Source: Escherichia coli
Lineage (GTDB): Bacteria; Pseudomonadota; Gammaproteobacteria; Enterobacterales; Enterobacteriaceae
Assembly (NCBI RefSeq): GCF_003334355.1
Contig: NZ_QOWP01000082.1
Reading direction: 5' to 3' (one strand)
Length of the DNA: 1,672 bases
The position numbers and the translations under genes are program-made. Under the pieces are notes generated by a model. It was not told the DNA's origin, did no database searches, and saw nothing but the letters and a program-made list of their open reading frames with translations. This document shows, piece by piece, positions 1-1,672 of the stretch (position 1 is its first letter; the number at the start of each line of letters is the position of its first letter).

Positions 1-54
1 TTGTCTGTAATCGGGGATAATAGAAATATGTTCCATCAATTTTTTAAGTTCCAT
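1..54 (-). CDS. ISAs1-family transposase (H-repeat-associated protein, ORF-H), N-terminal 18 codons only; CDS continues beyond the left edge (5' end in window, 3' partial).
   Basis: Minus strand reads TAAGGAGAACAAA ATG GAA CTT AAA AAA TTG ATG GAA CAT ATT TCT ATT ATC CCC GAT TAC AGA CAA = MELKKLMEHISIIPDYRQ. This matches the N-terminus of E. coli H-repeat / ISAs1-type transposases (YhhI/YdcC/YbfD-like) as I remember them. Consensus SD AAGGAG sits 6 nt upstream. H-repeats are classically found next to Rhs elements. Too short to appear in the ORF track. Confidence 0.65.
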   Translation of the reverse strand, partial: MELKKLMEHISIIPDYRQ

Positions 55-649: not shown

Positions 650-1033
650 TTATTTTCCGTGGCCAAAATTCAGAATTCTCCCATCATTTTTGCCTATTTC
701 TATAATAAAAACCCCACCAGCAATTTGGTCTGAGTGAATGGTACCTTCAACAACCCAACTTGTTGTTAACTCAGTGATTTCGTATGGTTTTTCTTCTTCT
801 GCGGCATCCTGTCCATAACGATTCTTAACATATATCTCAGCTAATTCCAATGCTATAGCTTTATTTTTAACCAAATTTCTAACGGTATATTTACCTTCAC
901 TTTCATACTTGCGCATTATTTTAATATTATTATTACACTGCGCCCATGTGTTGTATGTAAAAACAAACAAAGATACAATGACACAGTTCCTAAACAATAT
1001 TTTTTTACATATTACCATGAACTCTGCAGACAT
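650..1033 (-). CDS. Putative Rhs immunity protein (RhsI-like), 127 aa, with predicted N-terminal Sec signal peptide. Alternative start at ATG 1018..1016.
   Basis: Six-frame ORF immediately downstream of the rhs CT, overlapping its last codons by 29 nt (1005..1033), which is the typical rhs/rhsI arrangement. AAAGGA Shine-Dalgarno at 1046..1041, 7 nt upstream of the ATG. N-terminus [31 protein letters not shown]|QC has a basic n-region, an 11-residue hydrophobic core and a T-W-A cleavage-like site. The mature part contains ...[19 protein letters not shown]...[16 protein letters not shown]..., which resembles small immunity-type proteins but is not assigned to a family. Confidence 0.7.
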
Positions 1034-1672
1034 TAGGTAATCCTTTTCTGTTTGTTATTTCCTTCCCGTGGTTATCTATTGCTTTAAAATTACCACTGGG
1101 CGTACCTAAATAAAATGACTTGATATTGTTATCTTTACTTTTAACTATTTTCTCATCTTTACCTGAAAATATTTCGTCCCAATATTCTCCATGACTATCT
1201 GCACCATGAGTATGATAAGCTGATACTTTCTCAGTACCATTAGGGCAAGGGCTATTGAATGGATATGATCCTTTTCTTTCTCCTCGGTTAGGTGCTGTTG
1301 AGAAATATCTGCCACTATTATCCTTACATATTAAACCAGCGAACTCTTTATCTTCGCAAATAGATTGGCTATTTATTTTATTTAAGGCGTCATATGCGGT
1401 GCTATCTATAGAATCAAATTTATCTGGACCTATCATAGCGGATAGTGTGCCGCAAAGACCATTAGTACATGCCCCCGATTTTGCATCCTCCCACATAGAT
1501 AAACCCAGGGGGTCGATGTCTGATATCGGATTCAATTGATATCCATACAGGTTCCATCCCCCCTTCAGCCCAATCGGATCCTGAGTGATATATCGCCCCT
1601 GCAGCGGGTCATAATAGCGGTGGCGGTTGTAATACAGGCCGGACTCCTCATCATACTGCTGCCCCGGCAGGC
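1005..1672 (-). CDS. Rhs-family polymorphic toxin, C-terminal portion (3' partial; CDS continues beyond the right edge). Conserved core end is followed by a 164-aa variable C-terminal toxin domain of unrecognised family.
   Basis: Minus-strand frame is open from 1670 to the TAA at 1007..1005. It translates to [57 protein letters not shown], then [18 protein letters not shown]...NVCRVHGNM*. The YDPxxGRYxxxDPIGLxGGxNxYxY...PxxxxDPxGL pattern is the Rhs repeat-associated core end that demarcates the variable CT (DPLGL = 1514..1500). The ORF track starts this ORF at 1535 only because it reads a TTG Leu codon as a start; the frame is open upstream. GC is about 59% in 1561..1672 versus about 33% in 1021..1140 (counted by hand). 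Confidence 0.9.
1041..1046 (-). promoter_or_regulatory. Shine-Dalgarno (AAAGGA) for the putative immunity gene, embedded in the 3' end of the rhs coding sequence
   Basis: Plus-strand TCCTTT at 1041..1046 is AAAGGA on the minus strand, 7 nt upstream of the ATG at 1033..1031. Confidence 0.5.

Follow-up and report, generated by a model that had tools for sequence, protein, structure and literature searches.

The RhsB-associated immunity protein YhhH of Escherichia coli carries a probable Sec signal peptide, suggesting that its DUF4329 toxin acts outside the cytoplasm

The subject of this study is a stretch of 1,672 nucleotides from Escherichia coli (NCBI RefSeq assembly GCF_003334355.1, contig NZ_QOWP01000082.1), here called the window, which holds the 3′ end of the Rhs gene rhsB and, in the position of its immunity gene, yhhH. 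We find that YhhH is very probably exported by a Sec signal peptide; an immunity protein exported in this way would most likely serve against a toxin acting in the periplasm or envelope, and RhsB's C-terminal toxin domain accordingly appears likely to act outside the cytoplasm. The account as a whole, in which exported YhhH would block in the periplasm a JAMM-type toxin acting there or on the envelope, is in our judgement a probable one, and the narrower proposal that this toxin is an envelope (iso)peptidase is tentative. A periplasmic immunity protein paired with an envelope-directed toxin had been proposed from the N-terminus of YhhH in an earlier reading of this DNA (the original prediction), and that proposal is supported by the conservation of the signal among relatives of YhhH and by the export signals of genes that follow related toxins.

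The gene yhhH occupies positions 650..1033 of the window and, like all the genes described below, lies on the minus strand; it encodes 127 amino acids (aa), is named "protein YhhH" by RefSeq and belongs to the Imm-NTF2-2 family (Pfam PF15631). Within its first 32 codons (938-1033) a signal peptide of the signal peptidase I (SPase I) type is predicted at residues 1-31 (941..1033), on the basis of sequence features, conservation, the ratio of nonsynonymous to synonymous substitution rates (dN/dS) and an AlphaFold2 model. The n-region (residues 1-16, 986-1033) contains the basic residues K10, K11 and R15 and, as its sole acidic residue, E4, for a net charge of +2; the h-region (residues 17-27, 953-985) has an uncharged hydrophobic core running from C17 to F25 and reaching Y27, with a best 9-residue mean hydropathy of 3.13; and in the c-region N-T-W-A (residues 28-31, 941-952) T29-W30-A31 agrees with the −3/−1 rule and is followed at +1 by Q32 rather than proline, with cleavage predicted between A31 and Q32. 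The basic n-region, the hydrophobic stretch and the T-W-A site are thus all present as the original prediction had claimed. Residues 1-31 contain no twin-arginine pair of the kind that marks a Tat signal. In the AlphaFold2 model (predicted template modelling score 0.63), residues 4-28 form a helix with a predicted local distance difference test (pLDDT) score of 66-83, lower than that of the domain, residues 29-33 a break, and a well-predicted domain begins at residue 34; the predicted mature periplasmic protein (residues 32-127, 653..940) is modelled as a single helix packed on a curved beta-sheet. A hydropathy of 3.13 within the first 35 aa was matched by 64 of 5000 whole-protein shuffles (1.3%), and, judged as a lone sequence, the N-terminus is only moderately beyond what chance would produce; it is the comparison among relatives that suggests a signal peptide and carries the case. 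A signal peptide on the K-12 reference protein may already be recorded in protein databases.

Conservation of W30 and A31 is 90% or higher among 20 relatives of YhhH. Four orthologs with 65-72% identity (P0067, P0069, P0072 and P0074) read MFAEFMAICKKISIGNLAMASLFAITHNGWA/NG or similar, the slash marking the cleavage position, and retain M1, an equal length up to the alanine, the basic residues, and G-W-A in place of T-W-A; the K10-K11 pair is kept in most orthologs and is Asn-Lys in P0072. The h-region differs in sequence from one ortholog to another while its hydrophobicity is retained, and Cys33 is replaced by glycine, or by a gap in P0069, in all four. In the comparison of E. coli with Salmonella, codons 11-31 have a dN/dS of 0.41 and the remainder of the protein one of 0.18-0.22 (small counts); a relaxation of purifying selection of this kind in codons 11-31 would be expected of a signal peptide. 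The varied hydrophobic core and the loss of Cys33 therefore argue for evolution in the manner of a signal peptide and against a lipoprotein. We note that in one E. coli variant, P0055, the first ~29 residues are unrelated to those of YhhH and again signal-like (MKYIIFLFRAIWLALSLLILFF...), joined exactly at W-A-Q-C.

The presence of a cysteine just after the hydrophobic segment (W-A-Q-C33) could lead one to suppose that YhhH is acylated on Cys33, as its K-12 paralog YbbC would be on the cysteine of its L-F-A-C18 signal, and a lipobox was in fact called in many members of the family (see below). The glutamine at −1, however, breaks the lipobox pattern [LVI][ASTVI][GAS]C, and the four orthologs keep G-W-A while losing Cys33; we therefore rejected the lipobox reading, a lipoprotein YhhH being highly improbable, and the original prediction's statement that the protein has no clear lipobox holds. 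A second possibility is that the segment serves as an uncleaved signal anchor, by which YhhH would be tethered in the inner membrane while its domain lay in the periplasm, the same compartment with a different topology. The uncharged run from R15 to K38 is 22 residues long, the hydrophobic run of Salmonella P0069 is 20, the modelled helix comprises 25 residues, and a few family members, along with one further immunity gene discussed below, look anchor-like to our classifier. Yet the hydrophobic core itself, C17-Y27, is only 9-11 residues and short of a membrane span, K10, K11 and R15 would fall within any longer helix, and [G/T]-W-A, which fits the −3/−1 rule, keeps a constant distance from the core and is conserved at 90% or more, whereas an unused site would have little reason to persist. 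We consider an anchor unlikely, although it is the most credible of the alternatives to a cleaved signal peptide.

All of this presupposes that translation begins at M1. The original prediction had pointed out that a true start at M40 would remove the hydrophobic segment; such a start is unlikely, because only M1 has a Shine-Dalgarno sequence and because both M40 and M6 are replaced in ortholog P0072 (by leucine and isoleucine, respectively). Seven nucleotides upstream of the M1 codon is AAGGA (1041..1045, within the rhsB coding sequence), with a predicted anti-Shine-Dalgarno duplex of −5.4 kcal/mol, as compared to −1.7 kcal/mol for M6 and +0.9 kcal/mol for M40, and on these grounds we rejected both M40 and M6. 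The same AAAAGGATTACCTA-ATG precedes the Salmonella ortholog at an orphan locus (L003), every full-length ortholog retains M1, and RefSeq uses the identical ATG in strain EC-129 and in K-12, whose YhhH protein is identical to the product of the window open reading frame (ORF). The start lies within the toxin gene, the two coding sequences overlapping by 29 nucleotides (1005..1033) according to the ORF coordinates and RefSeq, and an overlap of 29 nucleotides with the upstream toxin gene is found at L003 as well; we infer that translation of yhhH is coupled to that of rhsB.

The Imm-NTF2-2 match covers residues 60-127 of YhhH (E 3.4e-26, model positions 1-68 of 68), and an exhaustive profile-free search returned 510 cluster representatives related to YhhH at E ≤ 1e-3. 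We applied a rule-based signal classifier of our own design to those listed representatives that reach 95 aa or more (117 in all), and it assigned 68 to an SPase I type, 30 to a lipobox type and 5 to possible anchors (103/117, 88%). As controls, it recognized 7/7 known E. coli signal peptides and flagged 1/5 cytoplasmic proteins and 9/95 toxin-side proteins. Export signals were also found in relatives with only 26-47% identity to YhhH. We rejected the classifier alone as decisive proof, given that it accepts 15% of composition-matched shuffles of YhhH and one of the five cytoplasmic controls and that its calls at two loci, L011 and L013, are debatable.

A further line of evidence comes from the genes that follow other DUF4329 toxins, DUF4329 being the Pfam family to which the toxin domain of RhsB belongs. 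The survey comprised ~15 pairs, a non-random sample to which one alignment (A5) contributed 7 loci, and export signals outside E. coli and Salmonella were judged by eye. In that part of the survey a clear export signal was present on the gene after the toxin in 9/14 cases: at L004/L005, where an Rhs gene is followed by P0129; at L006 and L007 (PAAR-DUF4329 beside vgrG); in both pairs of L009, one with a lipobox; at L010 (Serratia nevei), L012 (Dyella) and L014 (Polyangia, with a cysteine-containing, lipoprotein-like signal); and at L019, where an Rhs gene is followed by P0117. In one further case (L013) the signal is probable. The gene directly downstream of the toxin belongs to Imm-NTF2-2 in the window, at Salmonella L003, in the metagenomic L004/L005, in the two pairs of L009, at L010 and at L019; the Salmonella orphan Rhs C-terminal fragment is followed by P0069 with its signal peptide. 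The partners at L006 and L007 bear signals although the Pfam Imm-NTF2-2 model does not match them, so that the presence of an export signal follows the toxin and not a single immunity family. These two partners (L006 3013-3594 and L007 3316-3900), which follow PAAR-type or standalone DUF4329 toxins, are proteins of ~193 aa that carry a signal peptide and, in tandem, two repeats of ~90 aa; they have no Pfam match and look like an undescribed exported immunity family directed against the DUF4329 toxin. At L009, from Candidatus Omnitrophica (1-3597), a complete Rhs-DUF4329 gene and its lipoprotein Imm-NTF2-2 gene immediately precede an orphan DUF4329 fragment that has an Imm-NTF2-2-like gene of its own, the latter being the anchor-like gene mentioned above; this cassette array repeats, in a distant phylum, the toxin/immunity arrangement of enterobacterial rhs loci.

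Several observations count against an exported YhhH and an envelope-acting toxin. The n-region, at 15-16 residues and with hydrophobic residues within it, is atypically long, and in P0056, an E. coli form of 105 aa that stands for 22 clustered sequences, the hydrophobic core is missing through an in-frame loss. Among the partner genes, that of L008 (Tenacibaculum) has no export signal, that of L011 (Zophobihabitans) a doubtful one, and at two Bradyrhizobium loci, both among the seven from alignment A5, the downstream gene could not be interpreted; moreover, for a PAAR-Rhs-DUF4329 effector of Salmonella pathogenicity island 6 (SPI-6), the neighboring immunity protein is reported to be of CdiI type and to be scored negative by both SignalP and TMHMM (PMC10469887, Table 2). 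Three signal-bearing Imm-NTF2-2 relatives, P0132, P0154 (L021) and P0152 (L022/L023), adjoin no toxin, and the family therefore does not consist exclusively of immunity genes of toxin loci; their neighbors are HigB and helix-turn-helix genes, a PilP-like gene or unrelated ones. These three may be orphan immunity genes, or the family may also function in something other than immunity. Finally, one could envision that the hydrophobic segment has no function at all, either because translation starts at M40 or because the segment merely reflects AT-rich DNA, which would leave YhhH in the cytoplasm. The region has a guanine-plus-cytosine (GC) content of 31-39%, which favors the codons of hydrophobic residues such as Phe, Ile and Leu, the shuffles that pass the classifier have the composition of YhhH itself, gene callers disagree on the start (115-aa and 122-aa versions exist), and the Pfam domain begins only at residue 60. 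Against either possibility, however, stand the conserved Shine-Dalgarno sequence of M1 and the replaceable M40, an upstream frame that is open, of retained length and under purifying selection (dN/dS 0.45 over codons 11-39 between E. coli and Salmonella), and the recurrence of export signals both in distant relatives and in other immunity families, so that a nonfunctional segment seems to us improbable.

The toxin itself comprises 164 aa plus a stop codon (1005..1499) and matches Pfam DUF4329 (PF14220, E 1.1e-39), which corresponds to the Tox-JAB-2 domain of Zhang et al. 2012. Its AlphaFold2 model, built from an 18-sequence alignment, has a pLDDT of 93.4 and confidently predicts a JAMM/MPN+ metalloprotease fold, the MPN fold being recovered and the best fold matches being isopeptidases. 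The JAMM signature (1155..1346), whose codons we verified in the sequence, consists of E52 (1344-1346), H96-T97-H98 (1206-1214), S112 (1164-1166) and D115 (1155-1157). Across 93 non-redundant DUF4329 domains E52, H96 and H98 are present in 93/93 and S112 and D115 in 91/93, and they are also conserved in a further alignment (A4); the zinc-hydrolase site is therefore intact. Searches of Protein Data Bank sequences with the toxin and with YhhH returned nothing useful, and NCBIfam holds no hidden Markov model for either protein.

The original prediction had also found the cysteine-rich nature of the toxin domain consistent with action in the periplasm, and this argument stands only in part. Most DUF4329 domains have 0-2 cysteines, and the conservation of all six found in the E. 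coli tip is limited to the enterobacterial subgroup, so that in its general form, extended across the family, we rejected it. What remains is a single pair, Cys58 (1326-1328) and Cys85 (1245-1247), a candidate disulfide spanning 1245..1328: every domain with Cys58 also has Cys85 (16/16, in several lineages), Cys85 occurs alone in 3, and 73 of the 93 have a cysteine near neither position. Such co-occurrence is the pattern that a disulfide would leave and suggests an oxidizing compartment. The four other cysteines are confined to the enterobacterial subgroup.

Where would such a toxin act? Cytoplasmic immunity proteins accompany nuclease colicins, contact-dependent inhibition (CDI) toxins and Rhs nucleases, and by this general pattern an exported YhhH is not what a nuclease would be expected to have. 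A nuclease role was nevertheless proposed for Tox-JAB-2 by analogy with RadC (Zhang et al. 2012, PMC3482391), and later genome surveys repeat the label "RNase" (ribonuclease), one of them stating that activity and substrate are unknown. One might reconcile that label with our findings by supposing that YhhH is exported while the toxin's target is cytoplasmic, the toxin being intercepted in the periplasm on its way. We found only in-silico mentions in the literature on DUF4329, Tox-JAB-2, Imm-NTF2-2, yhhH and ybbC, and no nuclease experiment or report of neutralization. The intact signature of E, HxH, S and D and the isopeptidases that are its best fold matches also speak against a cytoplasmic target, as do the features of delivery: the first 300 aa of RhsB contain no hydrophobic segment (maximum 19-residue hydropathy 0.98), and thus RhsB is without an N-terminal transmembrane module, and two DUF4329 proteins, P0308 and P0372 (a Xenorhabdus "virulence protein"), have an N-terminal Sec signal of their own, so that in some lineages the DUF4329 domain itself would be Sec-exported. 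Interception en route to the cytoplasm is for these reasons quite unlikely, and action as a cytoplasmic nuclease or RNase is unlikely in general. The lack of a membrane-insertion module, a reading for which prePAAR effectors form the background, is weakly consistent with a delivery that stops in the periplasm.

Returning to the exported YhhH that we favor, its domain resembles in the model the PepSY and cystatin protease inhibitors, that is, extracytoplasmic inhibitor folds, and a mechanism can be envisioned as follows. RhsB is a PAAR-Rhs effector, as its PAAR motif, Rhs core and boundary motif show; its JAMM-fold tip would be released and delivered, on a PAAR-Rhs type VI spike, into the periplasm of a neighboring cell and would there hydrolyze an amide bond of the envelope, probably as a peptidase or isopeptidase. 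In one subgroup a disulfide formed in the target periplasm may stabilize the toxin. YhhH, which is translated from the overlapping ATG at 1033, as its Shine-Dalgarno sequence and conservation indicate, would be exported through Sec and cleaved after A31, as its features and their conservation suggest, and a mature domain of ~96 aa would be set free in the periplasm, where it would bind and block the toxin. Extended to the family, the proposal would be that DUF4329/Tox-JAB-2 domains are periplasm-acting zinc (iso)peptidases that cut an envelope amide bond and are inhibited by Sec-exported or lipoprotein PepSY/cystatin-like proteins, a generalization that we advance tentatively; the choice of particular substrates, for example a cross-link of peptidoglycan or the bond that joins Lpp to it, is speculation.

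The remaining features of the window are those of a common chromosomal locus. By megablast, the window has 99.8% identity to thousands of E. coli chromosomes in which rhsB, yhhH, a HEAT-repeat pseudogene and yhhI stand together, and in order of transcription the window carries the rhsB 3′ end, yhhH and a decayed yibA-like gene. The partial core of rhsB (1500..1672), identified by translation and RefSeq, ends in the boundary motif, whose DPLGL lies at 1500-1514, and the locus as a whole has the layout of a Rhs polymorphic toxin: a conserved core whose end is marked by a PxxxxDPxGL-type boundary comes first, and the variable C-terminal domain and the immunity gene come after it. The complete RhsB has 1411 aa with a PAAR motif at its N-terminus. 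GC content falls from >46% in the core to 31-39% over the toxin tip and immunity gene, and a drop after the core is the usual pattern of Rhs elements. Beyond yhhH is the decayed yibA-like HEAT-repeat gene (195-545; ORF 300-560), which matches NCBIfam PRK09687 "putative lyase" (E 3.5e-31) and is annotated in RefSeq as a pseudogene with an internal stop, under the K-12 name yrhC. Because yibA follows rhsA in K-12, this remnant looks like a leftover orphan immunity gene of another Rhs tip. At the end of the window (1-54) are the first 18 codons of yhhI, MELKKLMEHISIIPDYRQ, the transposase gene of ISEc1 (the H-repeat), which flanks the Rhs element.

Earlier work has already described the genes, the two Pfam families and the pairing between them. 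A periplasmic action of the DUF4329 family is not something we found in the literature, and it contradicts the "RNase" label. Because rhsB-yhhH belongs to the K-12 reference genome of E. coli, and because DUF4329 Rhs and PAAR effectors are common in E. coli, in Salmonella and in many phyla, the compartment matters: if the immunity proteins are exported, the target of the toxin is the envelope, and both annotation and assays change, the latter toward expression in the periplasm, read-outs of cell wall and lipoproteins, and tests of DsbA dependence. If the proposal is true, a JAMM-type hydrolase joins the known periplasmic antibacterial enzymes as a new enzymatic class of type VI/Rhs effector.

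With respect to known systems, Zhang et al. 2012 (PMC3482391) paired Imm-NTF2-2 with the Tox-JAB-2 domain of RHS proteins and described it as "E. coli only". The locus in our window is a founding member of that pairing, with matches to both Pfam domains; in contrast to the earlier description, the 510 representatives found here, mostly with export signals as judged by the classifier, are not restricted to E. coli. The closest parallel is in the K-12 genome itself, where the C-terminal domain of RhsD and YbbC form a paralogous pair: the toxin has the HTHG...S..D motif and the same six cysteine positions, and the immunity domain is shared. However, rhsD and ybbC are separated by 39 nucleotides whereas rhsB and yhhH overlap, and the lipoprotein signal of YbbC, with Asn at +2, differs from the SPase I site of YhhH, so that two paralogous immunity proteins would reach the periplasm by way of different signals. 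The JAMM/MPN+ isopeptidases whose fold the toxin is predicted to share (Pyrococcus JAMM1, AfJAMM, Rpn11, AMSH, BRCC36 and Cap3 of the cyclic-oligonucleotide-based antiphage signaling system, CBASS) have 11-22% identity to it and act in the cytoplasm on ubiquitin-like conjugates, whereas the RhsB domain is a delivered toxin with a predicted exported inhibitor and, in one subgroup, a co-varying cysteine pair. On the inhibitor side, PepSY domains, the propeptides of fungalysin and thermolysin, and cystatins are without detectable sequence similarity to YhhH, whose own inhibitory activity is a prediction. Among Rhs proteins, envelope-acting toxins are uncommon but not unprecedented: Tse5 (RhsP1) of Pseudomonas aeruginosa has a Rhs C-terminal domain with an envelope target and an immunity protein that is not cytoplasmic. 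Tse5 forms pores and is countered by an immunity protein in the membrane, in contrast to the enzyme-like JAMM domain of RhsB and its predicted soluble, exported partner. Amidase, muramidase and lipase effectors also act in the periplasm, but these are usually cargo proteins, whereas the toxin of RhsB is a JAMM-fold domain fused to a Rhs cage.

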